From Burkholderiaceae bacterium (lineage in GTDB: Bacteria > Pseudomonadota > Gammaproteobacteria > Burkholderiales > Burkholderiaceae_B): DNA of 64,000 nucleotides. Under the pieces are notes generated by a model. The model was given only the letters and a program-made list of their open reading frames with translations, was not told the origin of the DNA and ran no database searches. The position numbers and the translations under genes are program-made. The DNA lies in the NCBI GenBank assembly GCA_017983955.1, contig JAGOAJ010000008.1:24184-88183 (forward strand), read 5' to 3'. This document shows positions 4,924-48,446 of this stretch, in pieces; positions within the stretch are counted from its first letter, which is position 1, and the number at the start of each line of letters is the position of its first letter.

Positions 4924-4939
4924 TTATTTCGTACTCCTT

Positions 4940-13926: not shown

Positions 13927-13933
13927 CGCTTCC

Positions 13934-14677: not shown

Positions 14678-14702
14678 TTTCTTAATTCACATTACGTCAA
14701 GG

Positions 14703-16930: not shown

Positions 16931-16952
16931 TACTTAATCCAATATATTTTGA

Positions 16953-18257: not shown

Positions 18258-18266
18258 CGTGCTTCC

Positions 18267-21091: not shown

Positions 21092-21257
21092 CTAGTTTAG
21101 TTATTATTACCTGGCCGTACACAAAGGCTTTATCCACAGTACGGTCAGGAAATTAGCACAAATAAGACTTGTAGCCAGTCTTACCGCGTCTTTACAATCA
21201 ATTTATGGATATAGACGATAAATACCTCCGTAAGCTCAAAACGTGGAGACTGATCAA

Positions 21258-23383: not shown

Positions 23384-23662
23384 CTACCAGGAAACCTTGA
23401 TGTCGCCATTGACGAAGGTTTGGCAGGCCATGCGATAGCCATTGTCAAAGTCTTCGGGCTTCAAGTGCTTACGCTCCTTCGGCTTGATGGCATCGGTATT
23501 TTCCACCCCCTCTTCGATACGACATTTACAAGTGCCACAAAGACCGCCGCCGCATTTGAATGGAATACCGCCTTTTTCCCTAAGCGACACACGCAACAGA
23601 TTGCTGTTTTCGGGTGCAGTGACAGCCAACCCGCCGTTGCTGATAAAAGTAATCTGAACCAT
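23384..23662 (-). CDS. Stand-alone plant-type [2Fe-2S] ferredoxin
   Basis: It has the cluster motif C-x4-C-x2-C (KCGGGLCGTCKC) plus a distal MACQ. I trimmed the start to ATG 23662 (MVQITFISNGG...) so it no longer overlaps the upstream gene, whose stop is at 23671. Confidence 0.85.
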   Translation of the reverse strand: MVQITFISNGGLAVTAPENSNLLRVSLREKGGIPFKCGGGLCGTCKCRIEEGVENTDAIKPKERKHLKPEDFDNGYRMACQTFVNGDIKVSW

Positions 23663-23670
23663 AAGTGACA

Positions 23671-23985
23671 CTATCCTGCTACTTGTGCATTCGAGCATGG
23701 CACCAACGAGGCGTCCATGCTTCCAAATGATGTTAAATAGTTGAGTTCCTTGCGGGCATCCTCGAGCGAGGCAAATTTTTCCAGAAATTTGGATGGCACA
23801 TCGTTGACGACATACGGTGGCTCGTCTTCAACCACCCGCACTTTCGTTTCACCGTCCAAGATGGCTATCTGAAAAACCGCTTTGATTTTGCCGTAAAAGT
23901 GGTATTCATAAGACTCGACAACGCTTAGCGCGGCTGCCAGTTCTGTATGAAATTTTCCTGGTTTGCTCGTTAATATCACGTACAT
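23671..23985 (-). CDS. Small hypothetical protein (104 aa), no recognisable cofactor motif
   Basis: The ORF is tightly packed between two ferredoxin genes. It has a single Cys near the C-terminus and no family that I recognise. Confidence 0.55.
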   Translation of the reverse strand: MYVILTSKPGKFHTELAAALSVVESYEYHFYGKIKAVFQIAILDGETKVRVVEDEPPYVVNDVPSKFLEKFASLEDARKELNYLTSFGSMDASLVPCSNAQVAG

Positions 23986-24416: not shown

Positions 24417-24470
24417 CATATGTAGATTGTATACTATCTACATATGATGTCTCTAAGGGAATATACCCAG
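24417..24470. promoter_or_regulatory. Operator region: a 30-bp perfect palindrome CATATGTAGA-TTGTATACTA-TCTACATATG followed by the box CTAAGGGAATATACCCAG
   Basis: I read this directly. The 10-bp arms are exact reverse complements and the spacer contains the GTATAC palindrome. It lies ~95-120 bp upstream of the ferredoxin operon start (24323). Confidence 0.55.
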
Positions 24471-24507: not shown

Positions 24508-25476
24508 TCAGTCCGTCCGACGCGCAAACCGGGATGCCAGCACCGAACAAAGCATGAGTTGAATTTGGTGAAATATCATTAACGGTAAAACCACCATGCC
24601 CACGCCCCCACCTGCAAAAATGACTTGCGCCATGGGTACGCCAGTTGCCAGGCTTTTCTTGGAGCCGCAAAAAAGCGCAGTGATCTGATCCGCCTTGTCG
24701 AACTTCATGACTTTGCCGACCAGCACCGACCACAGCAGGATCAGCAACAGAACAACCAGGCTGCAAACTACCAGGCCAAGTATGGCCGTCAACGAGGTAG
24801 AGGACCACAGACCTTCATTGATGGCCTGCGAAAAGGCAACATATACCACCAATATGATAGAGCCCTGATCGACAAACTTAAGTATTGCCTTGTGCCGGGT
24901 GACCCACGCCCCTATCCAGCGCCGGGCAAATTGCCCAAGCACAAACGGCAGCAGCAACTGCAGCATTATCTTGCCGATCACATCATAAGAAATCGGTGCT
25001 GTGGCGGAACTGGCAATCACCAATCCCACCAAAAGTGGCGTTATAAAGATGCCCAGCAAGCTTGACGATGCCGCGCTGCACACAGCAGCGGGCAAGTTGC
25101 CCCGCGCAATCGAGGTCAGCGCAATGGCGGACTGAACCGTGGCGGGCAGACAGCACAAAAAGAGCACACCCGTGTAAAGCTGCGCGCCGACCAAGGGTTC
25201 CAGCACGGGCCGCAACGCCAGCCCCAAAAGCGGAAACACCAAAAATGTCGTGCTGAAGATGGTCAGATGCAAGCGCCAGTGCGTGACTCCCGCGACGATG
25301 GCCTGGCTTGAAAGACGTGCCCCATGCAGGAAAAAAAGCAAGGCAATGGCAATGTTAGTCGCCCATCCTAAACCATGAAGGACGAGTCCCTGCGCGGGCA
25401 AAAGGCTGGCTAAGCCCACTGCAATTAACAGATATAGAACGAAACGGTCGGGCAGCAAACGCGTGATGACGGACAT
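24508..25476 (-). CDS. yfeH: Bile acid:Na+ symporter (BASS) family transporter, YfeH-like
   Basis: 322 aa. Long blocks match my recollection of E. coli YfeH: LLFF.HGA.LS..AI.AG..HWRLHL, LPATVQSAIA.TS.A.GN..AAVCSA..SSLLGIF..PLLVGLV, GKIMLQLLLPFVLG, FCGSKKSLA.G.PMA and VLPLMIFHQIQLM.C.VLA.R. Confidence 0.9.
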   Translation of the reverse strand: MSVITRLLPDRFVLYLLIAVGLASLLPAQGLVLHGLGWATNIAIALLFFLHGARLSSQAIVAGVTHWRLHLTIFSTTFLVFPLLGLALRPVLEPLVGAQLYTGVLFLCCLPATVQSAIALTSIARGNLPAAVCSAASSSLLGIFITPLLVGLVIASSATAPISYDVIGKIMLQLLLPFVLGQFARRWIGAWVTRHKAILKFVDQGSIILVVYVAFSQAINEGLWSSTSLTAILGLVVCSLVVLLLILLWSVLVGKVMKFDKADQITALFCGSKKSLATGVPMAQVIFAGGGVGMVVLPLMIFHQIQLMLCSVLASRFARRTD

Positions 25477-25847: not shown

Positions 25848-26864
25848 TTACGCAGCCGCTTCAGTCTGGTACTGAAACGTGAAGCTGTCGGCATACATAT
25901 AGTCCAGGTCGGCGCCATGCTGGGCGAATAGCGACTTGGCATCGCCAATCATGTTTGGCGAGCCACAAAGGTAAATGGCGTGCTCAGACAAGTCATTGAA
26001 ATCTTGAGCCACCGCCTGCTGCACATGACCGCGGCGGCCTTGCCACTGCGGTCCGCCTTTTGACAGCACCGGCACAAAGTTGAATTCGTACAGACGATTT
26101 TTCCAGGATTCGATTTCGTCGCGCAAGTAAAGCTCTTCCTCGGTGCGCATGCCCCAATACAAAGACACTGGCGGGCAATCATCATTGTCCAGTAGCGATT
26201 CCAGTATGGCTTTGATGGGCGCCAATCCAGTGCCGTTAGCTACCATCACCAGAGGGCGCCAGTCGTCTTCGTGATAACAAAACGTACCTAGCGGCATTTC
26301 AATATTCAGAGCCGACCCTGCTGGCAAGGCCGTTAACAGCTGCTGGGTGAAGTGACCACCGGGTATCTGGCGTACGTGAAAATCAACTAAATTTCCGTTG
26401 ACTGCCGAAGAGGCCATGGAAAAACTGCGCGATGTACCATCATCCAGCAAAATATTCATGTATTGCCCTGGACGGTAGTCCAGCGGCGTATCGGCTGGGA
26501 GCTCTAGCGTCAAATGAACAATGTCGGCCGACAACGGTTGAACAGCGCTTAACCTAGCGCCCACACGCAATGGTTCGGCAAATGTCGGGCCTTTTTTCGC
26601 TGCGCTAAGCGTAACGTCTGAAACCGGTCGGGCTTGACAGGCCAACGCATAACCCTGGGCCGCCTCTTCTTCGGTAAGCGCCATCGGAAACTCGTCGTAG
26701 CGCACTGACCCGGCTTCTAGCTTTATTCGGCATGTGCCGCAACCGCCAAACTGGCACTCATGCGCCATCTTGACGTTGGCACGCAATGCCCCGTCCAGAA
26801 TAGACTCATCTTCATTGACCTCGAAGGCCTCGTCAGTTCCCAAAACATGAACACGATAAGACAT
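25848..26864 (-). CDS. Ferredoxin-NAD(P)+ reductase with N-terminal plant-type [2Fe-2S] domain (oxygenase-reductase type)
   Basis: It has ECQFGGCGTCRIK...ALACQ for the 2Fe-2S cluster, RSFSMAS for FAD binding, and MVANGTGLAPIKAIL for NAD(P)H binding. I trimmed the start to ATG 26864 (MSYRVHVLG), which has a GAAGG SD; the longer track ORF would run through a terminator hairpin. Confidence 0.9.
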   Translation of the reverse strand: MSYRVHVLGTDEAFEVNEDESILDGALRANVKMAHECQFGGCGTCRIKLEAGSVRYDEFPMALTEEEAAQGYALACQARPVSDVTLSAAKKGPTFAEPLRVGARLSAVQPLSADIVHLTLELPADTPLDYRPGQYMNILLDDGTSRSFSMASSAVNGNLVDFHVRQIPGGHFTQQLLTALPAGSALNIEMPLGTFCYHEDDWRPLVMVANGTGLAPIKAILESLLDNDDCPPVSLYWGMRTEEELYLRDEIESWKNRLYEFNFVPVLSKGGPQWQGRRGHVQQAVAQDFNDLSEHAIYLCGSPNMIGDAKSLFAQHGADLDYMYADSFTFQYQTEAAA

Positions 26865-26890
26865 ACCTTCACTCCGACAGTTTTTTGCGG

Positions 26891-26923
26891 AAAAAAAAGG
26901 GCGCATAACTACTGAATGCGCCC
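26891..26923 (-). terminator. Rho-independent terminator after glcG-like gene (stem GGGCGCAT/ATGCGCCC, then T8 on the minus strand)
   Basis: The minus-strand sequence reads GGGCGCATTCAGTAGTTATGCGCCC followed by TTTTTTTT. It is located between the glcG stop (26940) and the reductase start (26864). Confidence 0.7.
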
Positions 26924-26939: not shown

Positions 26940-27419
26940 TTACTTCTTGATATCTGCTTGCACCAGGACTTTCATACCCTTGTCGGCCAAGGCGTCAGCC
27001 AGAGCCTGCAGACCAGCCAGTGCAGCCTTGGTGTCCTGCTCTCCGTTGCCGCCGCTCAGGCCGATACCGCCGATGACTTCATCGTCGACCACAATCGGGA
27101 ACCCACCCACGAAAGCTGCAAACTTGCCTTCGAAACTGAGCTGTATGCCAAAGGCTTCATTGCCTGGCAAGGCTGGGCCGTTAGGCGCCGTGGTGAACAG
27201 ATGGGTGGAACGCTTATGGCCGGCGGCCGTAAAGGCCTTGTTCCAAGCGATTTGCGGGCCGGTGATCCGGGCACCGTCCATACGCTCCAGAAGAATCGGG
27301 AAGCCACCTTCATCAACTACGCAGACAGTTTCCAGCACGTTGATTTCTTTGGACTTCTTGACTGCGGCAGCCACCATCAAACGGGCTTCTTCCACTTCCA
27401 GACGTAAAATCTTTTTCAT
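26940..27419 (-). CDS. GlcG/HbpS-like (DUF336) heme-binding/accessory protein
   Basis: 159 aa. It has LEVEEARLMVAAAVKKS..., VCVVDEGG.PILLERMDGA, NKAFTAA and GG.PI....EVIGGIG.SGG, all characteristic of DUF336. Confidence 0.85.
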   Translation of the reverse strand: MKKILRLEVEEARLMVAAAVKKSKEINVLETVCVVDEGGFPILLERMDGARITGPQIAWNKAFTAAGHKRSTHLFTTAPNGPALPGNEAFGIQLSFEGKFAAFVGGFPIVVDDEVIGGIGLSGGNGEQDTKAALAGLQALADALADKGMKVLVQADIKK

Positions 27420-27464: not shown

Positions 27465-28967
27465 TTAGCCCGCGCGATAGACTGTTTTGATCTGGGTATA
27501 GAACTCCAGGCCAACACGGCCCGACTCACGAAACGTCGAAGTGCTTGATCGCTTCAGGCCACCAAACGGCGCATTCATCAAGTTGCCAGTTGTTGTACGA
27601 TTGATCTTGACCGTACCGGACTGGATATCTTGCGCAAAACGGTGGGCATAGACAGCGTTTTTGGTGGCAATAGCTGCCGAAAGACCATATTCCGTGTCAT
27701 TGGCCTTGACTATGGCATCGTCGTAATCTTTGACTTCTATAATTGCCAGCACCGGTCCAAAGATTTCCTCTTTGGCGATCCGCATATCCTGCGTAACGTC
27801 GGTAAACACAGCCGGAGTCACGTAATATCCGTGCTCGAATTCGCCGTCCTCTAGACGGTCACCACCGATCAAGTGGGTAGCTTCGTCTTTTCCGATGGCA
27901 ATATAAGCCAGCACATTTTCCATCTGGCCCTGTGTAGCCAGGGGGCCCAGATCGAACCCGATTTGCATACCGTTGCCGATTTTCAAAGCTTTGACCTTGG
28001 CGATCAGCTTTTCGGTGAAAGCCGCCTTTACCGCAGACTCGACCAATACCCGACTGGTGCCGGTACATGCCTGGCCGCTAAGCGAAAACCCGCCCTTTAC
28101 AGCCAAATCAACCGCCTTGTCCAGATCGGCGTCCGCCAGAACGATCAAGGGGTTCTTGCCGCCCAGCTCCATTTGCGTGCGTGTTGTCATGCCGACAGCA
28201 CGATGAATATGTTCACCTGCCGCTGTTGATCCAGTGAAGGAGATCGCCCTGACTTCAGGGGATTCGGTAATGGTTTTGCCTACCGCCGATGCGCGGCCGG
28301 TAATGAAGTTAAGCACGCCTGCCGGTATGCCAGCCTTCACAAAGGCCTCGGCCAGACGGTATCCGCTTAGCGGCGTATCGGTTGATGGCTTGAAGACTAC
28401 GGTATTGCCAGCAATCAAAGCCGGAGCAATTTTTCGCGCCGGTATGGAAACGGGGAAGTTCCATGGCGAAATAACAGTAACAACGCCCAGCGGTTCGCGC
28501 TGAGTGTAGACAATCATGTCATTGTCGTCCTGGGGAAAGGTTTCGCCGGTAAATGTCTGGCCTTCCACTGCGTAAAAACGCAGGGTCTGCGCCGACCGAA
28601 TCACTTCGCCCTTACTAAGATCCAGGCCTTTGCCTTCTTCGCGAGTCAGCTCTTCGGCAATTTGATCTGCATTCTGTTCCAGATAGTCAGCCGCCGAAAA
28701 CAGGATTTGCGCCCGTTTAGCAATAGGGGTATTTTTCCAGCCAACAAATGCGGCCTGCGCTGCGGCAACTGCCGCTGCGGCGTCGCTGGCATCGCTGGCT
28801 TGAAAGTTGCCGACGATATCACGCGTATCAGCCGGACTGATGTTTTTGTATGTATTGCCAGATGCGCTGGAAACCCAGGCGCCGCCAATGTAATTTTGAA
28901 ATACCTGATTCTTTAAATCTTGCACTTTATTGTTCCCTGAACACCTGCCGATAAGGCTGCCAATCAA
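27465..28967 (-). CDS. NAD(P)+-dependent aldehyde dehydrogenase
   Basis: It has YIGGAWV, VISPWNFP, FTGST, ELGGKNP and the catalytic Cys in GQACTGTSR. The start is uncertain: TTG 28967 has AAGGA 7 nt upstream, and GTG 28925 has AGGGAA 7 nt upstream. Confidence 0.92.
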   Translation of the reverse strand: MIGSLIGRCSGNNKVQDLKNQVFQNYIGGAWVSSASGNTYKNISPADTRDIVGNFQASDASDAAAAVAAAQAAFVGWKNTPIAKRAQILFSAADYLEQNADQIAEELTREEGKGLDLSKGEVIRSAQTLRFYAVEGQTFTGETFPQDDNDMIVYTQREPLGVVTVISPWNFPVSIPARKIAPALIAGNTVVFKPSTDTPLSGYRLAEAFVKAGIPAGVLNFITGRASAVGKTITESPEVRAISFTGSTAAGEHIHRAVGMTTRTQMELGGKNPLIVLADADLDKAVDLAVKGGFSLSGQACTGTSRVLVESAVKAAFTEKLIAKVKALKIGNGMQIGFDLGPLATQGQMENVLAYIAIGKDEATHLIGGDRLEDGEFEHGYYVTPAVFTDVTQDMRIAKEEIFGPVLAIIEVKDYDDAIVKANDTEYGLSAAIATKNAVYAHRFAQDIQSGTVKINRTTTGNLMNAPFGGLKRSSTSTFRESGRVGLEFYTQIKTVYRAG

Positions 28968-29050: not shown

Positions 29051-29782
29051 TTAGGCCGCTACTTCCAGTTCTTCCAGCGCAATTTCGGACTGCACGTAAT
29101 CGGTATACAAGGCGGTTGTGTACAACAGACGCATTTCAGCCCCAATTTCGCAAATCTTCAGGCAACGTTGCTGCAACTCTACGGTATCGGCATGCTCCAG
29201 CACGATCTGGTAACCACGTTCGCCGTGGATTTCGTCCGACACAATATGCAGGTCGAAAAACTCGACTTCTTCGTCAGTGAAGCCATAAGTGTCGCGTAGC
29301 GTCGGCGTTTGTTTGCGATAAATGGAAGGCACTTGCGATTCCAGACCCACTACCAAGCCGGCAACGGCCACAACGGGATCTTCGCGCATCGCTACGGCAT
29401 AGCACCATGACTGCAAGGCGCGGGTAGTAGGCGACATATTATCTGGGTTGACCACGCGTTCGCGTGTGGTACCGCAGGCTTCGGCAAAACGGATAAGCAG
29501 ATCGGTGTGGCGATCGCCACCGATTTCTTCTTCATACATATTAGCCAGCAGGAAGTCTTTTGCTTCAACAAATGCGGCTGGCGTACGGGCATAAAGGTAG
29601 CCCAAGTAGTCGGCAAATGGGCCTACATAATGGTAGTGATTTTCAGCCCAGCGAGCCAGGTGTTCGCGGCTTAATTTACCAGTTGCCCAGGCAATGCTGA
29701 AAGGCGATTTATTCGCTGTCTTGCCTTTGATAGCATTTTCGAGTGCGGTACGGAAATCGTCGCGGTTCATTAATTCGGCCAT
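29051..29782 (-). CDS. CADD/PqqC/TenA-superfamily heme-oxygenase-like protein with complete di-iron ligand set
   Basis: 243 aa and all-helical. It has a PqqC-like N-terminus (GKLSREHLARWAENHYHYV). The candidate ligands are E85-x6-H92, E148 and H179-x3-D183-x2-H186. It has a strong SD (AAGGA) and an ATG start. Confidence 0.8.
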   Translation of the reverse strand: MAELMNRDDFRTALENAIKGKTANKSPFSIAWATGKLSREHLARWAENHYHYVGPFADYLGYLYARTPAAFVEAKDFLLANMYEEEIGGDRHTDLLIRFAEACGTTRERVVNPDNMSPTTRALQSWCYAVAMREDPVVAVAGLVVGLESQVPSIYRKQTPTLRDTYGFTDEEVEFFDLHIVSDEIHGERGYQIVLEHADTVELQQRCLKICEIGAEMRLLYTTALYTDYVQSEIALEELEVAA

Positions 29783-29862
29783 GGTCTATCCTTTGTTAAA
29801 AGCACCTGCTGGTGCGGGGCAGTGCCAAGCGGCACATTAGTCTGAATCAAGCTTATGTGAAT

Positions 29863-29906
29863 ATTGTATACTATCTACTAAGTCGCAAAACTAGGGATAT
29901 CCCTAG
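29863..29906. promoter_or_regulatory. Operator region: ATTGTATACTATCTAC (an exact copy of 24426-24441), then the 16-bp perfect palindrome CTAGGGATATCCCTAG
   Basis: It lies 80-125 bp upstream of the CADD-like gene start (29782). The order and ~25-bp spacing of the two boxes match those at 24428/24453. Confidence 0.55.
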
Positions 29907-29932: not shown

Positions 29933-31387
29933 TTATTTTCCTAGCGAAATGCCGTCTTTGCGTGGGTCTGAAGCGCCCACCAAGCCACCATCGTCGGCCC
30001 TAAGAACTACTTGGGCACCGCCGAAATCGCTACGCCCCCCCAGTTCACCCACGTTTACAGCCGGCTCGCTATACCCTGCTGCCCGCAAGGCCGCTTCGAC
30101 TGAAGCGGGCATGCCAGCCTCGATAGCCAAGGTGTTACCGGCCTCGAGCCGCCACCGGGGCGCGTTGACAGCCGCCTGCAGTTCTTCCTTACCGGCAAGA
30201 ACACGAGTCAGAATTTGAAGCTGGCCCTGGGGCTGCATAAGCCCCCCAACGACCCCCATGCCAAGCAGAAACTTGCCGTTCCGGGTTGTGGCTCCAGGTA
30301 CCACGGTATGGTAGGGCCGTTTGCCTGGCGCGGCGCCATTGATATGCCCAGGGGCTGCAAAGCCAAAACCTCGGTTTTGCAGCACAAAACCACCGCCCGG
30401 CACCGCTATGCCTGAGCCAAAGCGCTTGAAGGTACTGGACATAAGCGTAATTGCCAGCCCATCGGCATCGACAATCACGGTACATACGGTATTACCCGCC
30501 GGATCAGCCACGGTTTCACTAGCCCGCCTCATAGCACTGGCAGTGGCATTGACTAATTGCACCGCGGCCTGCGGACTGCCTGGTTCAAAGTCGTGTGTCT
30601 GCATCTCTTGCAAGGCATCTAGAACAGCGACCCCATGTGTGTTGGGCGGACACTGATGCACCACAGCACCACAAAACGGCGTAGATAACGCCGGGCGAAA
30701 ATCACCCGTATGCTGCTCAAAATCTGCTGTCGCCAACACGCCGCCATGCGCCTGTACCGCCTGCGCCGCCGCATGGGCGACCGCGCCGCTATAGAAGGAC
30801 TGATAACCTTCTGCGGCTATCCCTTCTAGCACACGCGCCAGGTCCGTATTGACAAACTGCTCGCCGGCGCGCGGACTATGGCCTGCTCTGTACAGCTGCG
30901 CACAGTACGCATCGTTGTGCAAGACATGGTCAAATATTTGCCATTCATGCGCCACTATGGGGGCGACGGCGAAACCGTCGCGCGCCAGCTGTATTGCGTC
31001 GTCAAACAACAAGCGCCAATCCAGCCGTCCATAACGGCTATGCAAATCGTGCCACCCACGTACGGCGCCTGGAGTGGTCACAGAAAGCGGATGACGCTCA
31101 GGTATTTTTTGATTAGGCAGGCGAGCGACGTCGTCAGCCGACAACCCCAACGGCGCGCGGCCCGTACCGTTATAGCTTAGGACGCTGCCATCCGGGTGAA
31201 CCAACATCGCCAGCAAGTCGCCGCCAATGCTGGTGGCCATGGGCTCAACAACCCCTAACACCGCGTCGGCAGCAATGGCTGCATCGATAGCGCTGCCGCC
31301 CAGATCCAGCATTTTCTGGGCCGCAGATGCCGCCAAAGGATTGCCTGTGGCGATCATACTGACACGCCCGAATGCTTGTTTGCCCAT
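29933..31387 (-). CDS. Gamma-glutamyltransferase-family Ntn amidohydrolase, no signal peptide (cytoplasmic)
   Basis: 484 aa. It has the GGT blocks ATGNPLAA, GGSAIDAAIA, GGD and the autoprocessing/nucleophile region PAGNTVCTVIVDADG. This aligns with E. coli QTTHYSVVDKDG with the Thr conserved. It also has GGGFVLQN. The N-terminus is not hydrophobic. Confidence 0.88.
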   Translation of the reverse strand: MGKQAFGRVSMIATGNPLAASAAQKMLDLGGSAIDAAIAADAVLGVVEPMATSIGGDLLAMLVHPDGSVLSYNGTGRAPLGLSADDVARLPNQKIPERHPLSVTTPGAVRGWHDLHSRYGRLDWRLLFDDAIQLARDGFAVAPIVAHEWQIFDHVLHNDAYCAQLYRAGHSPRAGEQFVNTDLARVLEGIAAEGYQSFYSGAVAHAAAQAVQAHGGVLATADFEQHTGDFRPALSTPFCGAVVHQCPPNTHGVAVLDALQEMQTHDFEPGSPQAAVQLVNATASAMRRASETVADPAGNTVCTVIVDADGLAITLMSSTFKRFGSGIAVPGGGFVLQNRGFGFAAPGHINGAAPGKRPYHTVVPGATTRNGKFLLGMGVVGGLMQPQGQLQILTRVLAGKEELQAAVNAPRWRLEAGNTLAIEAGMPASVEAALRAAGYSEPAVNVGELGGRSDFGGAQVVLRADDGGLVGASDPRKDGISLGK

Positions 31388-31394: not shown

Positions 31395-32930
31395 TTACCC
31401 GAAAATTACAATCGCGCAGATAGTGGAGATAAATAAGCCTATCAACACGGGCGGCATCAAGGCCCTGACCAAATCAAGCACATGCACACGCGCAAACCCC
31501 GCCACGGCAATCAACGACGACCAGGCGATCAAGGTTCCACCACCAGTCCATATAGCGCCCATCTGACCAATAGCCGCCAAGGTAGCGGGCTCAATGCCAA
31601 CCACCGGACCCAAGGCTCCTGACAACGTACCTGTTAACGGAAGCCCGGAAAACCCTGACCCGTCAATACCGGAAATCATACCGACCAGCAATACACCAAA
31701 GGCCACCATGAAATGGTTATCAGGAATAAGGTGTTGGCCTGCAGAAATGATTTCAAACAACAAGCCTGGAGCTTGGTCGGTCGGAACCCCCAGTATCATT
31801 GCCGCGACTTCATTGGCGCCCAGGAAAAAGAAACCAGCAATGGGCAGTACCGAACCCATGGCCTTAAACGCAAACACAAAACCATCGGTTAAGTGATCGG
31901 GACAGGTGTCCAGCATCTTACGGGGGCCATCGGTAGCCAGCGCCGCCAGCATCATTAGTACAAATGCCACCCCGCCAACCAACCCGGCTGCATCGCCGCC
32001 ACGCAAGGCGGGCAGACTGGGGAATATGCTTGGCAAAACCATAATCATGATTACGCCCAAAAATGCCAGCGGTGTGACCACAGCAAACAATTTCGACCAT
32101 TTGATGCGGGTCCGTTCCTTAGCGGTCATGCCGACCTCAATTGGCTCGTCCGTCACCAGCTCATGTGTCGTACCGCGTGCAATTTCAGCCTTATCGAAAC
32201 TACCAGAGGACTCGACTTGCGTCAGCGTACTGTCTTGGGCGGTATTCTGCCAGGCCGTCAGCAAAGCGGCATTGGGTGCAACAAAATGCCTGCGCGTGAC
32301 TATATAGGTAATCAACAGAGCCACGACGCCAGTAATAATCGACAGCACCAGCGCGCGGTTACCCACGTCAATAACACTAACGGCGACCCCTGCTGCTTTG
32401 GCACTGATGCCAGGGGCAACGCCAATCACGTAATCAGACGACAAGGCCATGCCCTGACCTGCAATGGCGATAACCATCGCACCGACCAGGGGTGGCAAGC
32501 CTGCTGCAATTGCTGCGGGAAGCAAGATGGCCGAAACGAGGGGAACGGCAGGCGTTGGCCAAAAGAACAACGAAATGGTGTACGTACATATCGCAATCAC
32601 CAAAAACGAGGCAGGCCCGCCCTTCATGACTTTGCGAAACGGCTCGACCATTCTGACATCGGCCTCAAGCACCTTCAGCGAATTAAGCAGTGCGGTCATA
32701 AACGTAATGACCAGGAAAATATTGAACAACTCCTTAGCGGCGACAAAGCTGGCCGAAAAAATCCCGATCAAACCGCTGACTGGACTTCCAGTGATGGCAA
32801 AAACCACCAGGAATGTGCCTATCACCGAAGGCACGACAACGTTGGCCCGCATGATCATCGTAATGATAATGACGACTACACTGGCTAAATAAACCCAATG
32901 TGACACATTGAGCATGACATCTGTTGGCAT
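31395..32930 (-). CDS. Large polytopic membrane transporter, family unassigned (two hydrophobic halves joined by a hydrophilic loop)
   Basis: 511 aa with at least 12 predicted TM segments. A central polar loop reads ...NTAQDSTLTQVESSGSFDKAEIARGTTHELVTDEPIEVGMTAKERTR.... The gene ends 7 nt upstream of the GGT-family gene. Confidence 0.65.
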   Translation of the reverse strand: MPTDVMLNVSHWVYLASVVVIIITMIMRANVVVPSVIGTFLVVFAITGSPVSGLIGIFSASFVAAKELFNIFLVITFMTALLNSLKVLEADVRMVEPFRKVMKGGPASFLVIAICTYTISLFFWPTPAVPLVSAILLPAAIAAGLPPLVGAMVIAIAGQGMALSSDYVIGVAPGISAKAAGVAVSVIDVGNRALVLSIITGVVALLITYIVTRRHFVAPNAALLTAWQNTAQDSTLTQVESSGSFDKAEIARGTTHELVTDEPIEVGMTAKERTRIKWSKLFAVVTPLAFLGVIMIMVLPSIFPSLPALRGGDAAGLVGGVAFVLMMLAALATDGPRKMLDTCPDHLTDGFVFAFKAMGSVLPIAGFFFLGANEVAAMILGVPTDQAPGLLFEIISAGQHLIPDNHFMVAFGVLLVGMISGIDGSGFSGLPLTGTLSGALGPVVGIEPATLAAIGQMGAIWTGGGTLIAWSSLIAVAGFARVHVLDLVRALMPPVLIGLFISTICAIVIFG

Positions 32931-33065: not shown

Positions 33066-33247
33066 CGAACGGTATACTGTATTTCAAAAATGATTTGATA
33101 GTTGAAGAAAAAACAGCTTATAAGGGATTACGATAATAAAAAACTGCCGATAACAGGCAAAACCTCTAGGGTATTCCCGCAAATCCTCATCAGACTGTGT
33201 CCAGTCCTTTCGATTCCCAACAAAATAGAATATCGTATACCGTTTAT
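33066..33247. promoter_or_regulatory. Divergent control region with two oppositely oriented GTATAC-boxes (33066-33085, 33228-33247) and an internal CTAGGGTATTCCC box (33166-33178)
   Basis: In gene orientation the boxes read GAAATACAGTATACCGTTCG (toward the minus-strand transporter) and GAATATCGTATACCGTTTAT (toward the plus-strand TauE-like gene). Confidence 0.45.
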
Positions 33248-33267: not shown

Positions 33268-34002
33268 ATGCATCAACTCGTTATGTTTTCCGACCCATGG
33301 CTATACGCCATGATGGCCGTGCTGATATTTTTTGCAGCCTTCATGCAGGGCCTGGGCGGAGTCGGGTTTGCCATGTTTGCCGCACCGATAGCCGCGATAT
33401 TTTTTCCACAAATGGTGCCCGGCACTCTGTTGACGCTAGGCGGGTTCGTGTCCTTGCTCACCGCATTACGCGAGCGCCACGATACCCTTTGGCCAACGGC
33501 CGGCGCAGCTCTGGCTGGGCGCGCCATCGGCACGTTAATCGCTGTCTTTGTCTTGGCTCAGCTGGCGCACAAATCCGTGAACCTGCTGTTTGCTGCCCTT
33601 ATTCTTATTGCTGTCGTCCTAAGCGTGGCTGGCCTACGCATCGCCACTACTCCTAGAAACATCACGCTGGCAGGAATAGTTTCGGGCATCATGGGCACGC
33701 TGACCTCGGTAGGCTCGCCGCCGCTGGTCATCGCGCTACAGCACACCCCGCCGCCCAATCTGCGCGCAACGCTGGGCGTTACCCTATTTTGCGGCTCGGC
33801 TTTTTCATTGATCATGCTGTCCTTTACCGGACACTACACCCTAGAGCAGCTCTTGCTAAGCGTGACCCTTGCACCCTTCATGTTTCTGGGCTTTTCACTG
33901 TCCAGCCAAATACATCAGAAAGTCAGCCCGGCAGCAATCAGGAAGCTACTGTTGACGTTTTGCGCCACCAGCGCTGTGGGCCTGATATTGAAGACCCTAT
34001 AA
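33268..34002 (+). CDS. TauE/SafE (TSUP, DUF81) family anion-export membrane protein
   Basis: 244 aa with 7-8 TM helices. It has the motif FAAFMQGLGGVGFAMFAAP near the N-terminus and a repeated half (GIMGTLTSVGSPPLV). Confidence 0.82.
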   Translation: MHQLVMFSDPWLYAMMAVLIFFAAFMQGLGGVGFAMFAAPIAAIFFPQMVPGTLLTLGGFVSLLTALRERHDTLWPTAGAALAGRAIGTLIAVFVLAQLAHKSVNLLFAALILIAVVLSVAGLRIATTPRNITLAGIVSGIMGTLTSVGSPPLVIALQHTPPPNLRATLGVTLFCGSAFSLIMLSFTGHYTLEQLLLSVTLAPFMFLGFSLSSQIHQKVSPAAIRKLLLTFCATSAVGLILKTL

Positions 34003-34059: not shown

Positions 34060-34803
34060 ATGGAAGCTCCGTCCATCACTTTTACACTCGGCTTAATGAA
34101 ATTGCCTGCTATTACCGCCGGACTGCCTGCCGCCAAGACTGACCCAGCGTCGTTGAAAATAGGTAATCAGCACTCCTCATTATTTGCGGTCATTGCCGAT
34201 AAGTTACGGGAACGTATCCTTAGCGGGGAATTCAAGCCAGGCGACCGACTAGTCGAAGGCAAGCTGTCAACCGATATGGCCGTTTCCCGCGTACCTGTGC
34301 GCGAAGCCCTGCGTGCGCTGGCTGCCGAAGGCCTGGTCACCATCGAGCCCCGACGCGGTGCCTATGTATCTATCTTGTCCGACGAAATCGCCTATGACAT
34401 GGTCGAAGTCCGCGCAACGCTTGAAGGCCTGAACGCCAAGCTGGCAGCACAGCGACGCGACGACAACACCATCGCTAACCTGCAAAAGATACTCGCCGAA
34501 GGCGCACAGGCCATTAACACTCAAAGCACTGAAAAACTGTTCGCCCTGAATATCCAGTTTCATGAAACGCTGGCGATTATCGCTGGCAATATTGTGCTGA
34601 CCGAGCTCATGCGCTCATTACGCGACCGTACTGCCCTTCTTTTTGCGCCCAGCAATATGCATCGGATCAAACAGAACTGGGAAGAACATGCGCAAATCCT
34701 AAGCGCTGTGATCGCCGGTAACGGCGATCTGGCTAGCCTGCTGGCCACGCAACACGTCCATAACGCCGCCAAGGCGTATGTCGACACCCGCAAGACGCCC
34801 TAA
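34060..34803 (+). CDS. GntR-family transcriptional regulator (FCD subfamily)
   Basis: It has LRERILSGEFKPGDRLVEGKLSTDMAVSRVPVREALRALAAEGLV and a helical FCD domain. The start may be at 34096 (MKLPA...). Confidence 0.88.
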   Translation: MEAPSITFTLGLMKLPAITAGLPAAKTDPASLKIGNQHSSLFAVIADKLRERILSGEFKPGDRLVEGKLSTDMAVSRVPVREALRALAAEGLVTIEPRRGAYVSILSDEIAYDMVEVRATLEGLNAKLAAQRRDDNTIANLQKILAEGAQAINTQSTEKLFALNIQFHETLAIIAGNIVLTELMRSLRDRTALLFAPSNMHRIKQNWEEHAQILSAVIAGNGDLASLLATQHVHNAAKAYVDTRKTP

Positions 34804-34941: not shown

Positions 34942-35023
34942 CTAGGGATAACCCCGGATTCTTAAACTGGGCCATCCATGCTATTTTTCACATCTTGTAA
35001 TAAAGAATACTGTATACGAAAAC
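34942..35023. promoter_or_regulatory. Control region of the ABC operon: CTAGGGATAACCCC (34942-34955) and GTATAC-box GAATACTGTATACGAAAAC (35005-35023)
   Basis: The box order and ~70-bp spacing are the same as upstream of 33268. The GTATAC core lies ~60 bp upstream of the 35072 start. Confidence 0.45.
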
Positions 35024-35071: not shown

Positions 35072-36085
35072 ATGCTTTATTTCTCTACCAGTTCTTCCTC
35101 CGTCTTGCGCAAGCTATTGATTGCGTCCACAGCTGCCCTAATCAGCACCCAAGCCATCGCCGACACTGCCCCTACCAAGGTACGCTACGAAGAGGTTGTC
35201 AGATCCGTCCTTTATATGCCGATGTATGTCGCCTTGAATCAGAACTACTTCAAGGATGTCGGCCTGGATGTCAGCATGAAAACATCCCAGGGTACAGATA
35301 AAGGCATGGCCGCACTGCTATCGGGCAGCGCCGACATTGTGTTGATTGGACCGGAAGCGTCGATTTATGTCGCCAACAGCGAATCGCCAGTAAAACCCAA
35401 AGTGTTCGCCGGCCTGACGGCTACCGATGGGTTCCTGCTACTGTCTCGCCAACCCATAGAGAAATTCACTTGGGATATGGTCAAAGGTAAAAAGGTCATG
35501 TCGTTCCGGCCTGGCTCTAATCCAGATGTGTTTCTGGAATCGGCCATACGAAAAAACAATTTAGATCCGAAACGCGACCTAACCATGGTCAGTAACATTG
35601 GTGCAGCCGCGCGTGCGGGTGCCTGGATGGCCGGACAAAGCGACTTTGCCATCTTTCTAGAGCCTGAAGCAAGCAATCTTCAGAAAGACGGCCATGGGCA
35701 GATCGTCGCCTCTGTGGGTCAGGAAGTCGGCCAAGTGGACTTTACCGCTTTTACAGCCACCGACGCCTACTTGGAGAAAAACCCCAAGGTCGCGCAAGCG
35801 TGGACCAACGCCATTTACCGCGCACAGAAATACGTAGCCGATGCACCGCCCAGCGACTTGGCCAAGCAGATCAGTTCCTACTTTCCCGGCATCACGCAAG
35901 ACGAGTTGGTGACAACAATAGAGCGCTATCGCCAATACGACCTATGGAAGAAAACCCCCATGGTCGAACCAGCCGCCATCGAGGCGTTGCAAGATATGCT
36001 AATTGCCAGCGGGCTGCTTGAGTCAAAAGACCGTGTGCCCTACGAACAAGTAGTCCTAACCAATTTTGCAACCGAGGCCAAATAA
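35072..36085 (+). CDS. ABC transporter periplasmic binding protein, NMT1/THI5-SsuA/TauA-like (NitT/TauT family)
   Basis: 337 aa with a signal peptide ...STQAIA/DT. It has VRYEEV.RSVLYMPMYVA...YFKDVGLDV, typical of NMT1/SsuA-type receptors. Confidence 0.85.
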   Translation: MLYFSTSSSSVLRKLLIASTAALISTQAIADTAPTKVRYEEVVRSVLYMPMYVALNQNYFKDVGLDVSMKTSQGTDKGMAALLSGSADIVLIGPEASIYVANSESPVKPKVFAGLTATDGFLLLSRQPIEKFTWDMVKGKKVMSFRPGSNPDVFLESAIRKNNLDPKRDLTMVSNIGAAARAGAWMAGQSDFAIFLEPEASNLQKDGHGQIVASVGQEVGQVDFTAFTATDAYLEKNPKVAQAWTNAIYRAQKYVADAPPSDLAKQISSYFPGITQDELVTTIERYRQYDLWKKTPMVEPAAIEALQDMLIASGLLESKDRVPYEQVVLTNFATEAK

Positions 36086-36087
36086 CA

Positions 36088-36921
36088 ATGACCACACAAG
36101 TTCTGGAAAGAGCCTCGGCCCCCAGCCACGCAGCCGCCATACGGGCACGTATCGAGATCGACAATGTCTCGTTGCACTATTTCACCAAGCAAGGGGAAAC
36201 ACAGGCGCTGGACAACATCTCGCTGGATATCGGCGCAGGTGAATTCGTCAGTATCATCGGACAATCCGGCTGTGGGAAAAGCACGCTGCTGTCGATTATG
36301 GCCGGCATTCTTCGTCCATCCCAAGGCAGTATTAAAGTCGACGGCAAGGCTGTCACGGCGCCATCGCCGCGTATAGGCTACATGCTGCAGCAGGACTATC
36401 TGTTTGAATGGCGCACCATACTCGATAACACACTGTTAGGCGCCGAGATCCAGAAACGTGACATGAAGCAGGCACGGGAACGTGCCATCTACTTGCTTGA
36501 AAAGTGTGGCATGGGCGACTTCCAAGATCACTACCCTAGGGCCTTGTCGGGCGGCATGCGCCAGCGCGTTGCCCTGGCCCGTACCTTGGTGACCGATCCA
36601 GACGTCGTCTTGCTAGATGAACCATTTTCCGCCCTGGACTCGCAAACTCGCCTAGCCATCGCCGACGAAGTCGTCGATGTGCTTCGCAGCGAAGGCAAGT
36701 CAGTGGTGCTGGTCACGCATGATATTGGCGAAGCCATTGCCATGACCGACCGCGTCATCGTTCTGTCCCGCCGTCCAGGCCGCATCAAATCGCAGTATCT
36801 GATGAAGTTCCCTAGTCACGGCGCTGGGCACCCCACTCCGTTCGAGGCACGTTCTTTACCTGAATTCAACACCTACTTCAACATGTTGTGGGACGAGCTT
36901 GACGTGCACGTAGAAGGCTAA
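36088..36921 (+). CDS. ABC transporter ATP-binding protein (NitT/TauT family)
   Basis: It has Walker A GQSGCGKST, the signature LSGGMRQR and Walker B VVLLDEPFSALD. Confidence 0.92.
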   Translation: MTTQVLERASAPSHAAAIRARIEIDNVSLHYFTKQGETQALDNISLDIGAGEFVSIIGQSGCGKSTLLSIMAGILRPSQGSIKVDGKAVTAPSPRIGYMLQQDYLFEWRTILDNTLLGAEIQKRDMKQARERAIYLLEKCGMGDFQDHYPRALSGGMRQRVALARTLVTDPDVVLLDEPFSALDSQTRLAIADEVVDVLRSEGKSVVLVTHDIGEAIAMTDRVIVLSRRPGRIKSQYLMKFPSHGAGHPTPFEARSLPEFNTYFNMLWDELDVHVEG

Positions 36922-36936
36922 CCCTGGAGCAACACT

Positions 36937-37815
36937 ATGGAACTAAACCCTGCTATGTCTCTGAATAATACATCGGTCCAAACCCAAGTCGCCGATCACG
37001 CGTCGGCCGCCCAGGCCAACAAAGGCCCCAGCCCAGCCTATGTTGCCTATTTGAAAAAACAAAGCCGTCGGCAAAACATGATTTCGCTAAGCCGCATCAT
37101 GCTATTGGTGATATTTTTGGGTCTGTGGGAATTTATGGCCAAGACCAAAATGGTCAATCCCATGCTAACCAGCTACCCCAGCGCACTATGGCCCACCTTT
37201 CTTGATCTGCTGCAAAACGGCAATCTTATGCTGCACACCTGGGCTACCTTCAAAGCCACTATCATCGGCTTTATTATCAGCATGATTATGGGCGTGGCTG
37301 TAGCTGCCGCATTATGGTGGTCGGATTTTGCCAACAGGGTACTAGACCCCTTTCTGGTCATAGCCAACGCCATGCCAAAAATCGCCTTTGTCCCCATCTT
37401 CTACATTTGGCTGGGTTCGGAATATTCTGTGTATGGCATGGCTGTCGCCATTTCGGTCTTTATCACCATAATGGTGGCCTATGAAGGCTTTCGCGGTATC
37501 GATCCCAACAAAATCAAGCTGGCCCTTACCCTGGGAGCCTCGCGTTGGCAGATCCTTAATATGGTGGTGCTTCCCGGCAGCGTGCCCACCTTGCTGGCAG
37601 CCTTGAAGATGAATATCGGACTTGCACTGGTCGGTGTTATTGTTGGCGAGTTTCAATCAGCCAGCGAAGGCCTAGGATTTTTAATCATCAATGGCAGCCA
37701 GGTATTCAAACTGAACATCGTCATGACCGCCATCGCTATCCTGGCCGTCTTGTCCGGCTTGATGTATTTGGCTGTTGCACGCCTGGAAGCAGTCACTTCC
37801 CGCCGTTACGCTTAA
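36937..37815 (+). CDS. ABC transporter permease (NitT/TauT family)
   Basis: 292 aa with 6 TM helices. It has an EAA-like loop (...ALTLGASRWQILNMVVLPGSVP). Confidence 0.88.
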   Translation: MELNPAMSLNNTSVQTQVADHASAAQANKGPSPAYVAYLKKQSRRQNMISLSRIMLLVIFLGLWEFMAKTKMVNPMLTSYPSALWPTFLDLLQNGNLMLHTWATFKATIIGFIISMIMGVAVAAALWWSDFANRVLDPFLVIANAMPKIAFVPIFYIWLGSEYSVYGMAVAISVFITIMVAYEGFRGIDPNKIKLALTLGASRWQILNMVVLPGSVPTLLAALKMNIGLALVGVIVGEFQSASEGLGFLIINGSQVFKLNIVMTAIAILAVLSGLMYLAVARLEAVTSRRYA

Positions 37816-37824
37816 GGAGCTGAA

Positions 37825-38538
37825 ATGGATTTTCCTCAATGGGTTATTGATCGGGTCGTAGCACGCCAGGGGTGCTTACACCCCTATCCCGAGTTTGACC
37901 CCAGCAAGACGGCTTTCGTCATTATTGACCTGCAAAACTACTACACGCAGCCAGGCTTCCAAGGTGAGTGCGCCCCCGCGCGGGCGACGTTCGGCGCAGT
38001 CAACAAACTGGCGCAAGCCTTGCGCCAGGCCGGTGGCCACGTGGTTTGGATAAAAACCAGTTCAGACGGCGCCGACCAATTCTGGTCGCACCACCATAAC
38101 CATATGCTCACGCCTGAACGCAGTGCACGGCGACTGACCGAACTTAGCCCCAATCATGACGGCTTTCGCATGCCGCCCGAACTGGACGTTGACCCGCAAG
38201 ACCAGCAGGTCATCAAGCGCTGTTATAGCGCTCTGTCACCTGGCTCATCAAGCCTGGATGACGTGCTTAAAGCGAAAGGCATCACTACAGTCCTTATTGG
38301 CGGCACGGTGACCAACGTCTGTTGCGAGTCAACCGCGCGCGACGCCATGATGATGGATTACGCCACCATCATGGTCGATGATGCGCTATCGGCTGTTACG
38401 CCCGATGAACACGTCAACTCTTTAAACAACTGGATGCTGTTCTTCGGTGATGTGCTTAGCGTTGATGAGGTAATAGAACGCCTTCAACCTGGCGGCATCA
38501 TCCAAACCGAGGAAGCAGAAATACAAGCTGCGGTGTAG
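37825..38538 (+). CDS. Isochorismatase-family cysteine hydrolase (amidohydrolase)
   Basis: 237 aa. It has AFVIIDLQNYY (catalytic Asp) and VLIGGTVTNVCCESTARDA (nucleophilic Cys), with a Lys in between. Confidence 0.88.
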   Translation: MDFPQWVIDRVVARQGCLHPYPEFDPSKTAFVIIDLQNYYTQPGFQGECAPARATFGAVNKLAQALRQAGGHVVWIKTSSDGADQFWSHHHNHMLTPERSARRLTELSPNHDGFRMPPELDVDPQDQQVIKRCYSALSPGSSSLDDVLKAKGITTVLIGGTVTNVCCESTARDAMMMDYATIMVDDALSAVTPDEHVNSLNNWMLFFGDVLSVDEVIERLQPGGIIQTEEAEIQAAV

Positions 38539-38554
38539 GGCCAAGGTCCAACAC

Positions 38555-38584
38555 AAAAAAAGCCGCATAATGCGGCTTTTTTTG
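38555..38584 (+). terminator. Bidirectional rho-independent terminator (A6-AGCCGCA-TAA-TGCGGCT-T6)
   Basis: A perfect 7-bp GC-rich stem is flanked by A- and T-tracts, immediately after the hydrolase stop. Confidence 0.75.
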
Positions 38585-38630
38585 TTTCTGCAACTATTGA
38601 CGCGCCACCCCAGCCGTTGCACACTAAATC

Positions 38631-44330: not shown

Positions 44331-44367
44331 ATCAACCTTGCTGATCGCCTAGAAGCAACTTACGTCA

Positions 44368-47410: not shown

Positions 47411-47430
47411 TTTAAAGCAAGGAACCAGCC

Positions 47431-48444: not shown

Positions 48445-48446
48445 AT

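Follow-up and report, generated by a model that had tools for sequence, protein, structure and literature searches.

A highly conserved, predicted heme-oxygenase-like di-metal oxygenase of a Burkholderiaceae bacterium and its putative partners in a probably catabolic gene cluster of proteobacteria

We analysed a stretch of 64,000 nucleotides from a Burkholderiaceae bacterium (assembly GCA_017983955.1, contig JAGOAJ010000008.1, positions 24,184 to 88,183; hereafter the window) and concentrated on one gene, whose product is related to the heme-oxygenase-like di-metal oxygenases (HDOs), and on the genes encoded around it. The HDO open reading frame (ORF) starts with ATG, a GGA ribosome-binding site is located 7 nt 5' of the start, and the database record identical to the encoded protein is MBP6019039.1. 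The ORF reported at this place in a first-pass annotation proved to be real; as a correction, the gene is encoded on the minus strand, and the plus-strand translation of 29051-29782 is broken by many stops. The genes on the minus strand are arranged in the order permease, γ-glutamyltransferase (GGT)-like amidohydrolase, HDO, aldehyde dehydrogenase (ALDH), DUF336 protein, Fer2-FAD-NAD reductase, SBF-like transporter, ferredoxin 1, a small protein and ferredoxin 2. The HDO gene is thus the third gene of a co-directional run that extends from the permease gene to the reductase gene. Genes for a TauE-family protein and a GntR/FCD regulator are encoded divergently from this minus-strand cluster (Table 1).

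Comparison with profile models assigned the HDO protein to the Pfam family PF14518 ("iron-containing redox enzyme") with 131 bits and an E-value of 4e-38. The superfamily-wide model PF03070 (TENA/THI-4/PQQC) also matched above its threshold, with 40.5 bits. The best sequence matches in the PDB were the "4-aminobenzoate synthases" 9pj4 and CtCADD (1rcw/8va9), with E-values of 5e-18 to 1e-16; PqqC entries came next and UndA was marginal. The first-pass annotation had described the protein as PqqC-like and had listed six residues, E85, H92, E148, H179, D183 and H186, as a di-iron ligand set of the CADD type, together with the numbering of the CADD ligands. These residues are located in the motifs YEEEIGGDRH, GLESQ and HIVSDEIH, and a HMMER alignment to 1rcw paired them one to one with the ligands of CtCADD (CtCADD/HDO: E81/E85, H88/H92, E142/E148, H174/H179, D178/D183, H181/H186), confirming both the residues and that numbering. 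The query was also aligned with 7 orthologues and with 20 relatives, the most distant of which share 24% identity; no more than 8 columns of this alignment are invariant, and the ligand residues account for 6 of the 8. All six are also invariant in 92 orthologous HDO copies from 83 genome loci. The agreement in these six residues lies far beyond chance.

An AlphaFold2 (AF2) model of the HDO was built on the alignment of query, orthologues and relatives. The model is all-helical, with a predicted local distance difference test score (pLDDT) of 95.9 and a predicted template modelling score (pTM) of 0.91. Foldseek returned CtCADD (8va9) as the first match to the model, with template modelling (TM) scores of 0.82/0.92 and a root mean square deviation of 1.8 Å, followed by PqqC, UndA, HrmI, BesC and FlcD; the top matches had a probability of 1.00. 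Two features of the HDO superfamily were found in this way: the seven-helix heme-oxygenase-like fold, seen in the model and in the Foldseek matches, and a set of three histidines and three carboxylates on core helices 1-3 in the order E...H / E / H...D...H, seen in the alignment. Sequence alignment, AF2 model and Foldseek agree on an HDO with the ligand set of the CADD type, in line with the proposal, made from the sequence, of a metal-dependent oxidase or oxygenase rather than an enzyme of pyrroloquinoline quinone (PQQ) synthesis. We classify the protein as a predicted heme-oxygenase-like di-metal oxygenase, most likely with a di-iron site.

PqqC has the same fold as the HDO (TM ~0.8) and shares with it the match to the TENA/THI-4/PQQC superfamily. 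It is, however, a cofactor-less enzyme, and at the positions aligned with the six ligands the PqqC of M. extorquens carries G, G, a gap, R, A and D (HMMER alignment). The HDO reaches 48.5 bits against the NCBIfam PqqC equivalog model (TIGR02111), far below the cutoff of 240. A Pfam scan of the ~70 ORFs of at least 150 aa in the 64-kb window detected no pqq or pab genes, and no pqq genes are present in the conserved neighbourhood of the HDO loci. The earlier statements that genuine PqqC lacks these ligands and that no other pqq genes are present in the window therefore both held. Since PqqC is without all six residues and no pqq genes are among the scanned ORFs of the window, the HDO is not a PqqC. 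Structures of TenA were only distant fold matches to the HDO model, with 12-16% identity (Foldseek).

The nearest characterised relatives of the HDO are the CADD/PabS synthases of para-aminobenzoate (4-aminobenzoate, pABA); the HDO itself belongs to a distinct orthogroup. CtCADD (CT610) and NePabS (1rcw, 8va9, 9pj4) are self-sacrificing Fe/Mn or Fe/Fe 4-aminobenzoate synthases, and CtCADD forms pABA from its own Tyr27 and Lys152 via a tyrosine relay (PMC13108848). They are the top sequence and fold match for the HDO and share with it the seven-helix fold, the same ligand set at equivalent positions and ~30% identity. In contrast, the sacrificial residues are replaced in the HDO, Tyr27 by Ser29 and Lys152 by Gln158, and the relay residues Tyr141, Tyr170 and Tyr43 by Leu147, Phe175 and Trp45; each of these replacements is invariant in the 92 orthologous copies. 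Lys157, located next to Gln158, is an Arg in 10 of them. A CADD-like subgroup within the family alignment retains the tyrosine of HPFY.AW and the lysine of ESQ.P..A..K, whereas the clade of the query does not, and the score against the NCBIfam CADD model (TIGR04305) is 97.5 bits, below the cutoff of 200. Because the sacrificial Tyr27 and Lys152 as well as the relay tyrosines are replaced, the HDO is not a plain CADD-type pABA synthase, the outcome against which the first-pass annotation had set its own proposal of a catalytic role.

More than 1,400 homologues of the HDO were found. Its orthologues come from three classes, the alpha-, beta- and gamma-proteobacteria, and share 84-93% identity, with Alcaligenaceae (among the hosts are Achromobacter and Bordetella bronchiseptica), Cupriavidus, Paraburkholderia and Variovorax as beta-proteobacterial hosts, Aminobacter, Kaistia, Methylocella and Acetobacteraceae as alpha-proteobacterial hosts and Halomonadaceae in the gamma-proteobacteria. 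At least 574 HDO-matching stretches are present in a collection with one genome per species. The whole orthogroup forms one cluster at 50% identity, and the next full-length relatives share 48%, 39% and 36%. In the 92 copies 153 of the 243 positions are invariant, and on this measure the constraint on the HDO sequence is very strong. The hosts are metabolically versatile free-living proteobacteria, which sometimes carry two copies of the gene or a plasmid-borne one, and this again is unlike CADD/PabS. Two copies within 10 kb were found in five loci, two of Cupriavidus (L039, L056) and three of Aminobacter and Kaistia (L003, L066, L071); the paired copies are 99.6-100% identical in Cupriavidus and ~89-92% identical in Aminobacter/Kaistia. 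Cupriavidus basilensis has two identical copies, AJG22943 and AJG22948. In the pairs within 10 kb, the ferredoxin triplet (ferredoxin 1, small protein, ferredoxin 2) comes after one copy and the genes for ALDH, DUF336 protein and reductase come after the other. In Caballeronia sp. SBC2 the whole HDO module is located on the mobilizable plasmid pSBC2-4, beside two ISNCY transposase genes, a location that is consistent with horizontal spread of the cluster. A signature of horizontal transfer in the base composition was looked for in the window and rejected, the cluster having 53.2% GC and the window 53.4%. Annotated plasmid records carrying the HDO gave generic names of the Prokaryotic Genome Annotation Pipeline only, and a search for Rosetta-stone fusions among HDO relatives yielded only longer relatives with TPR repeats or a duplicated HDO domain.

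To describe the gene context, ORFs were called and clustered in the 83 genome loci around HDO orthologues, and partners were counted in the 54 loci with full 10-kb flanks, which come from alpha- and beta-proteobacteria. The small protein of ~100 aa and ferredoxin 2 are each encoded in 53 of these 54 loci, ferredoxin 1 and the DUF336 protein in 52, the GntR/FCD regulator in 50, the ALDH in 48, the 511-aa permease in 45, the Fer2-FAD-NAD reductase in 44 and the TauE-family protein in 39. A Halomonadaceae locus with shorter flanks contains the same core partners. The ALDH is the most constant catabolic enzyme of the cluster; the clustered loci contain no other conserved oxygenase and no conserved alcohol dehydrogenase. 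In many genera the HDO gene is directly followed by those for ferredoxin 1, the small protein and ferredoxin 2, in this order, and the gene for the small protein lies between both ferredoxin genes in 71 of 75 loci. The TauE gene shares an operon with the ALDH gene in Aminobacter. A gene of the ornithine cyclodeaminase (OCD) family is found in 39 of the 83 loci; in Billgrantia, the gene after the single ferredoxin gene is Asp-dehydrogenase-like, and an OCD-like gene occupies that place in some other loci.

Parts of this context recur around more remote relatives. A 48%-identical relative is followed by genes for a Rieske ferredoxin and a DUF336 protein, and a 33%-identical one has a DUF336 gene next downstream. 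A 35%-identical relative is encoded between two ALDH genes, near genes for a GntR/FCD regulator, an isochorismatase, a GGT and an FAD monooxygenase (FAD_binding_3), and a 34%-identical one has a TauE gene nearby. The contexts of the remote relatives as a whole (24-39% identity) are mixed or lie on short contigs and are partly informative. The redox partners and the ALDH seen by the first-pass annotation are thus present, in a set that is larger than it had described and also comprises two ferredoxins, the small protein, the DUF336 protein, the permease, the GntR regulator and the TauE-family protein. Its suggestion of a catalytic role with these partners is supported by their association across proteobacterial classes.

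Table 1. Genes and operator-like elements of the HDO region (coordinates refer to the window).
Feature	Position	Strand	Evidence and remarks
HDO gene, heme-oxygenase-like di-metal oxygenase, 243 aa	29051..29782	minus	PF14518, CADD alignment, AF2 model
ALDH, NAD(P)-dependent	27465..28967	minus	Pfam Aldedh 558 bits
DUF336 / HbpS-like (GlcG-like) protein	26940..27419	minus	Pfam PF03928 112 bits
NAD(P)H:ferredoxin-type reductase, BenC/MmoC class	25848..26906	minus	Pfam Fer2 + FAD_binding_6 + NAD_binding_1
SBF-like (bile acid:Na+ symporter family) transporter	24508..25476	minus	Pfam SBF_like 331 bits
Ferredoxin 1, plant-type [2Fe-2S], 98 aa	24027..24323	minus	Pfam Fer2; C41, C46, C49, C83
Small conserved protein, 104 aa, without Cys cluster	23671..23985	minus	between the two ferredoxin genes
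Ferredoxin 2, plant-type [2Fe-2S]	23384..23698	minus	Pfam Fer2 50 bits; probable start internal Met near 23662
GGT-family Ntn amidohydrolase, cytoplasmic, accessory	29933..31387	minus	Pfam G_glu_transpept 350 bits; lineage-variable
Polytopic membrane protein, 511 aa, presumed substrate permease	31395..32930	minus	
TauE/SafE-family (DUF81) putative anion exporter	33268..34002	plus	Pfam TauE 87.5 bits
GntR/FCD transcriptional regulator	34060..34803	plus	Pfam GntR + FCD
Accessory operon: NitT/TauT-type (SsuA-like) binding protein, ATPase, permease, isochorismatase-family hydrolase, FAD monooxygenase	35072..39872	plus	
Operator-like motif ATATTGTATAC	29861..29871		80-90 bp upstream of HDO start; part of conserved element GGTATACAGTAT
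Near-perfect palindrome, 30 bp, CATATGTAGATTGTATACTATCTACATATG, GTATAC core	24417..24446		~100 bp upstream of ferredoxin 1
Operator-like motif, one mismatch	33072..33082		divergent promoter region, upstream of permease gene
Operator-like motif ATATCGTATAC	33230..33240		upstream of TauE-GntR unit
Operator-like motif ATACTGTATAC	35007..35017		upstream of ABC-transporter operon

The partner proteins of the window were compared with family models and structures. The longest ALDH ORF has a TTG start, and orthologues of 484-486 aa suggest that the true start is near 28925. The nearest NCBIfam models of the ALDH are those for alpha-ketoglutarate semialdehyde dehydrogenase (573 bits, cutoff 770) and betaine aldehyde dehydrogenase; it remains below every equivalog cutoff, and its top PDB matches are betaine aldehyde dehydrogenases (~1e-106). 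Relatives of the DUF336 protein in the PDB are 2a2l, NahX, the C-terminal domain of PduO and the formaldehyde sensor EfgA. DUF336 proteins go with aldehyde-generating pathways, and EfgA binds formaldehyde (PMC8153426). The reductase matches the NCBIfam models for BenC, MmoC and AntC, all under the cutoff, and both ferredoxins retain the four cysteines of plant-type [2Fe-2S] proteins, which are invariant in the alignment.

The small protein gave no match in Pfam, NCBIfam or the PDB sequences, and only 361 homologues, all without Pfam assignment, were found. Its AF2 model is beta-rich with a pLDDT of 88, and Foldseek detected no fold match in the PDB better than an E-value of 0.2. Some of its homologues are named "ferredoxin" by NCBI. 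The idea of a degenerate ferredoxin was rejected, hhalign against the two ferredoxin families giving a probability of 0.1%; since the protein has neither a Cys cluster nor detectable homology to ferredoxins, this name looks wrong. For an effector of the MmoB/DmpM type, Pfam, NCBIfam, PDB sequences and Foldseek gave no support. The small protein may be an effector or coupling protein and is a candidate for this function.

Other genes of the cluster vary between lineages. The GGT-like gene, whose product has 2nlz ("cephalosporin acylase") as best PDB match, is present in only 8 of the 54 full-flank loci. In its place, an AS-family amidase is encoded in ~17 Cupriavidus loci and also in Aminobacter, and an alpha/beta hydrolase on the Caballeronia plasmid. 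The permease gave no Pfam, NCBIfam or PDB-profile match; its family has more than 3,000 proteins, with the public names "hypothetical" or "integral membrane protein". The SBF-like gene, inserted between the reductase gene and the ferredoxin triplet, has no counterpart in the 54 other loci and is lineage-specific. The accessory operon with its ATP-binding cassette (ABC) transporter, isochorismatase and FAD-monooxygenase genes is present in only 2 of the 54 loci.

An arginine-to-proline module is located beside the HDO cluster, on the plus strand at 21243-23257. It consists of two genes with an overlap of 4 bp, one for an ornithine cyclodeaminase (530 bits against a cutoff of 350) and one for an arginase (240 bits against a cutoff of 228), and is absent from the other loci. 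This OCD was considered as the counterpart of the usual OCD-like gene of the cluster and rejected: OCD and arginase are both genuine, and the OCD-like gene found elsewhere is a different one.

The upstream regions of the cluster were inspected for common sequence elements. The hexamer GTATAC is present 13 times in the window, with 9 of these sites between 24.4 and 35.0 kb. For the longer motif ATAYYGTATAC, with one mismatch allowed, 6 matches were found in the window versus 1.9 ± 1.2 in shuffled sequences, and none of 100 shuffles reached 6. Five of the six matches are located in promoter regions of the HDO cluster, and a GTATAC core is also present at 25583, upstream of the SBF-like gene. In other genera, more than 20 loci carry the same motif 40-95 bp ahead of the HDO gene, among them those of Aminobacter (both copies), Bordetella, Paraburkholderia, Kaistia, Variovorax and the Caballeronia plasmid, and GGTATACAGTAT is the sole conserved block in the alignment of HDO upstream regions. 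This conservation indicates that the co-conserved GntR/FCD regulator probably uses the GGTATACAGTAT-type element as its operator and that a regulated promoter of its own probably precedes the HDO gene. The first-pass annotation had stated that the HDO gene heads an operon. In the co-directional run it is the third gene, and the statement is nevertheless essentially right, because the gene has its own conserved operator and a probable promoter. The motif upstream of the accessory ABC operon is also present in two other loci (L005, L078), and in this lineage the operon 35072-39872 probably belongs to the same regulon as the HDO cluster.

We interpret the HDO as the oxygenase of a catabolic system that has several components, is driven by NADH and forms an aldehyde, a reading to which we assign a probability of roughly 60%. 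The enzyme most likely acts on a free small molecule and with many turnovers, unlike CADD/PabS, and it also differs from them by its location in a regulated catabolic-type gene set with reductase, ferredoxins, ALDH and permease. We infer the electron path, the type of reaction, the aldehyde product and the substrate class as follows. NAD(P)H would reduce the Fer2-FAD-NAD reductase, and electrons would pass via one or both [2Fe-2S] ferredoxins to the Fe2(III/III) site of the HDO, with the Cys-free ~100-aa protein possibly serving as coupling or effector protein. The Fe2(II/II) form of the HDO would activate O2 and oxidise an imported small polar substrate. The likeliest reaction would be the hydroxylation of a carbon beside a heteroatom (N or S), the product of which would collapse to an aldehyde, which the co-encoded ALDH would turn into the acid. 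The DUF336 protein would plausibly be an aldehyde binder or sensor, and the TauE-family protein would export an anionic by-product, either sulfite or a sulfonated or other acid. The lineage-variable amide hydrolases, here the GGT-like protein, may supply the substrate from conjugated forms, and the GntR/FCD regulator would control the whole set via the GGTATACAGTAT-type operator.

Several neighbours give leads to the substrate. The TauE-family gene, the NitT/TauT-type ABC transporter and the aminoaldehyde-type ALDH suggest an aminosulfonate or another sulfonate, the OCD-like or Asp-dehydrogenase-like gene suggests a cyclic or acyclic amine acid, and the variable amidases suggest amide conjugates.

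The composition of the proposed system parallels that of soluble methane monooxygenase (sMMO), toluene-4-monooxygenase and phenol hydroxylase, in which a di-iron hydroxylase is combined with a Fer2-FAD-NAD reductase (MmoC/T4moF-like), a small ferredoxin and a small non-redox protein. Like these bacterial multicomponent monooxygenases, the HDO is encoded together with a dedicated reductase (44/54 loci) and ferredoxins (52-53/54 loci). Neither a recognisable effector of the MmoB/DmpM type nor a hydroxylase with a ferritin-like four-helix bundle is part of the set; the hydroxylase of the known systems is ferritin-like, that of the HDO system heme-oxygenase-like. Because the fold differs and the small protein is unrelated to the effectors, the likeness is one of analogy and not of family membership. 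The picolinate 6-hydroxypicolinic acid (6HPA) monooxygenase PicB was considered as a PqqC-like parallel and rejected, as the paper on it shows a four-component Rieske oxygenase.

A number of points weigh against this interpretation. The convergence of the six residues on one predicted site rests on the CADD alignment and on the superposition of the model at 1.8 Å. The type of reaction is deduced from the gene neighbours only, and desaturation, C-C cleavage and N-oxygenation are also among the reactions of known HDOs. A 2026 review states that the HDOs so far characterised need no protein effector, and it notes a need for a redox partner only for MboA (PMC13108848); a multi-component HDO would therefore be without close precedent. 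The small protein is unlike known monooxygenase effectors. The TauE family is broad, and the function in anion export is putative. The reductase is absent within 10 kb in 10 of the 54 loci, and in the window the reductase gene and the ferredoxin triplet are split by the inserted transporter gene. Literature searches gave no publication on the orthogroup or the gene cluster and no biochemical or genetic work on any member, the Fitness Browser preprint does not mention them, and all database names of orthogroup members are generic or wrong.

The alternative that survives best keeps the same partners and changes the chemistry: the HDO would carry out N-oxygenation, oxidative C-C fragmentation or desaturation, or a direct cleavage of C-S or C-P bonds, and the ALDH would act on an intermediate upstream or downstream of this step. 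Characterised HDOs all perform reactions of this kind and not simple hydroxylation (PMC13108848), with HrmI, SznF and RohS as examples of N-oxygenation and BesC and UndA as examples of fragmentation or desaturation. The N-oxygenase HrmI has the same set of three histidines and three carboxylates as the HDO, and BesC releases formaldehyde, which would suit a DUF336/EfgA-like partner. Against this, a dedicated reductase with ferredoxins implies an input of two electrons per turnover, the stoichiometry typical of monooxygenases, and the cluster has an ALDH as its most constant catabolic enzyme and no conserved alcohol dehydrogenase. In addition, the HDO aligns to CADD apparently without the extra-Glu insertion of SznF-type N-oxygenases. 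Taken together, we consider this account rather unlikely in full, and a different reaction class as such is quite possible.

Less probable still is an HDO that depends on no dedicated partner and draws its electrons from a non-specific cellular reductant, next to redox genes whose products belong to another enzyme or to a general function. Characterised HDOs were assayed in vitro without dedicated partners, the reductase gene is missing from some loci as described above, and the ferredoxins of the window form a separate transcription unit. However, the loci contain no alternative conserved oxygenase, and the ferredoxin triplet directly follows the HDO gene in many genera. Furthermore, the HDO and ferredoxin units have one operator motif in common in their upstream regions, and the remote relative with a Rieske ferredoxin points to a non-orthologous replacement in which the function was kept. 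The explanation is weakened because no other oxygenase is conserved, the operator is common to both units and the Rieske replacement is seen.

A single-turnover, self-sacrificing synthase, which would consume its own side chains, or residues of the small protein, to make pABA or a different metabolite, is very improbable. CtCADD and the second "4-aminobenzoate synthase" 9pj4 are the closest characterised relatives of the HDO, Tyr155 and Trp45 are invariant in the orthogroup and close to the CADD relay positions, and the small protein between the ferredoxins has invariant Tyr and Lys residues (Y2, K8, Y28, K66). The invariant Ser29 and Gln158 in place of the sacrificial pair, the Leu and Phe in place of Tyr141 and Tyr170, the variation of Lys157 to Arg and the score below the CADD-family cutoff all speak against such a mechanism. 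The gene is moreover part of a substrate-type regulon with permease, ALDH and GntR/FCD regulator, and its duplication in some genomes and plasmid location in others is the pattern of a catabolic module, not of a vitamin pathway. Both the replaced residues and the surrounding genes make a self-sacrificing role unlikely.

A cofactor-less PqqC-type oxidase or a TenA-type thiaminase or "transcriptional regulator" is implied by public names such as "pyrroloquinoline-quinone synthase" and "TenA family transcriptional regulator" and by the PF03070 match and the PqqC folds at superfamily level. The PqqC role is excluded for practical purposes by the invariant ligands that PqqC lacks, by the low equivalog score, by the far stronger match to PF14518 and by the absence of pqqB/D/E from the scanned ORFs of the window; a TenA role is very improbable.

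The proposed oxygenase system also differs from the catalytic HDOs characterised to date, UndA, BesC, HrmI/BelK, SznF, RohS, AetD, FlcD/E, PolF and MboA. These belong to the same superfamily (TM 0.7-0.8), have the same kind of di-iron site and act on free small-molecule substrates. They share, however, only 16-18% identity with the HDO and are biosynthetic enzymes encoded in natural-product clusters, whereas the orthogroup described here is accompanied by a conserved reductase, two ferredoxins and the small protein, in a context of catabolic type. Tentatively, and with less confidence than we place in the oxygenase system as such, it could represent the first multi-component HDO monooxygenase, a counterpart with heme-oxygenase fold to the ferritin-fold multicomponent monooxygenases of bacteria, with a coupling protein of new fold and a catabolic C-N or C-S cleavage that turns a widely occurring small polar metabolite into an aldehyde; an aminosulfonate is a possible substrate.

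Further gene sets were observed in other parts of the window. In the region 43833-49622, genes for an AsnC-type regulator and for a dipeptide-type ABC transporter with its family-5 binding protein are accompanied by genes for a PLP-dependent (PALP) enzyme, a protein of the succinylglutamate-desuccinylase/aspartoacylase family and a class I/II aminotransferase, a set which we take to resemble the ectoine-utilisation (eut/doe) genes. Genes for a biotin carboxylase, a carboxyltransferase, two thiolase-like proteins, an OB-fold (ChsH2-type) protein and a MaoC hydratase are located at 341-7407 on the minus strand; this looks like a catabolic set of the acyl-CoA carboxylase / thiolase-like type. At 11436-18779, also on the minus strand, genes for a tripartite ATP-independent periplasmic (TRAP) transporter (DctQ, DctM) and two tandem DctP-type binding proteins are followed by two short-chain dehydrogenase/reductase (SDR) genes and a gene for an FAD_binding_2 oxidoreductase. 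On the plus strand at 56410-60978, glycosyltransferases of family 2 and of the PMT_2 (ArnT-like) type precede an OmpR-type response regulator and a histidine kinase, an arrangement that suggests a module for the modification of the envelope or of lipid A, together with its two-component regulator.

Of ~10,000 predicted HDOs, about a dozen have a known function, and all of these are biosynthetic or self-sacrificing (PMC13108848). The present orthogroup is extremely conserved in several hundred proteobacterial species and comes with a complete, regulated set of candidate partners, which makes the hypothesis directly testable. If the proposed oxygenase system is real, the chemistry of HDOs would reach into primary catabolism, and this would be the first system in which the activation of O2 by an HDO is possibly gated by partner proteins. 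The public names "PQQ synthase", "TenA family transcriptional regulator" and "aldehyde dehydrogenase" would then have to be corrected for the members of the orthogroup, and a widespread pathway for an environmental or host-derived compound would have been uncovered.

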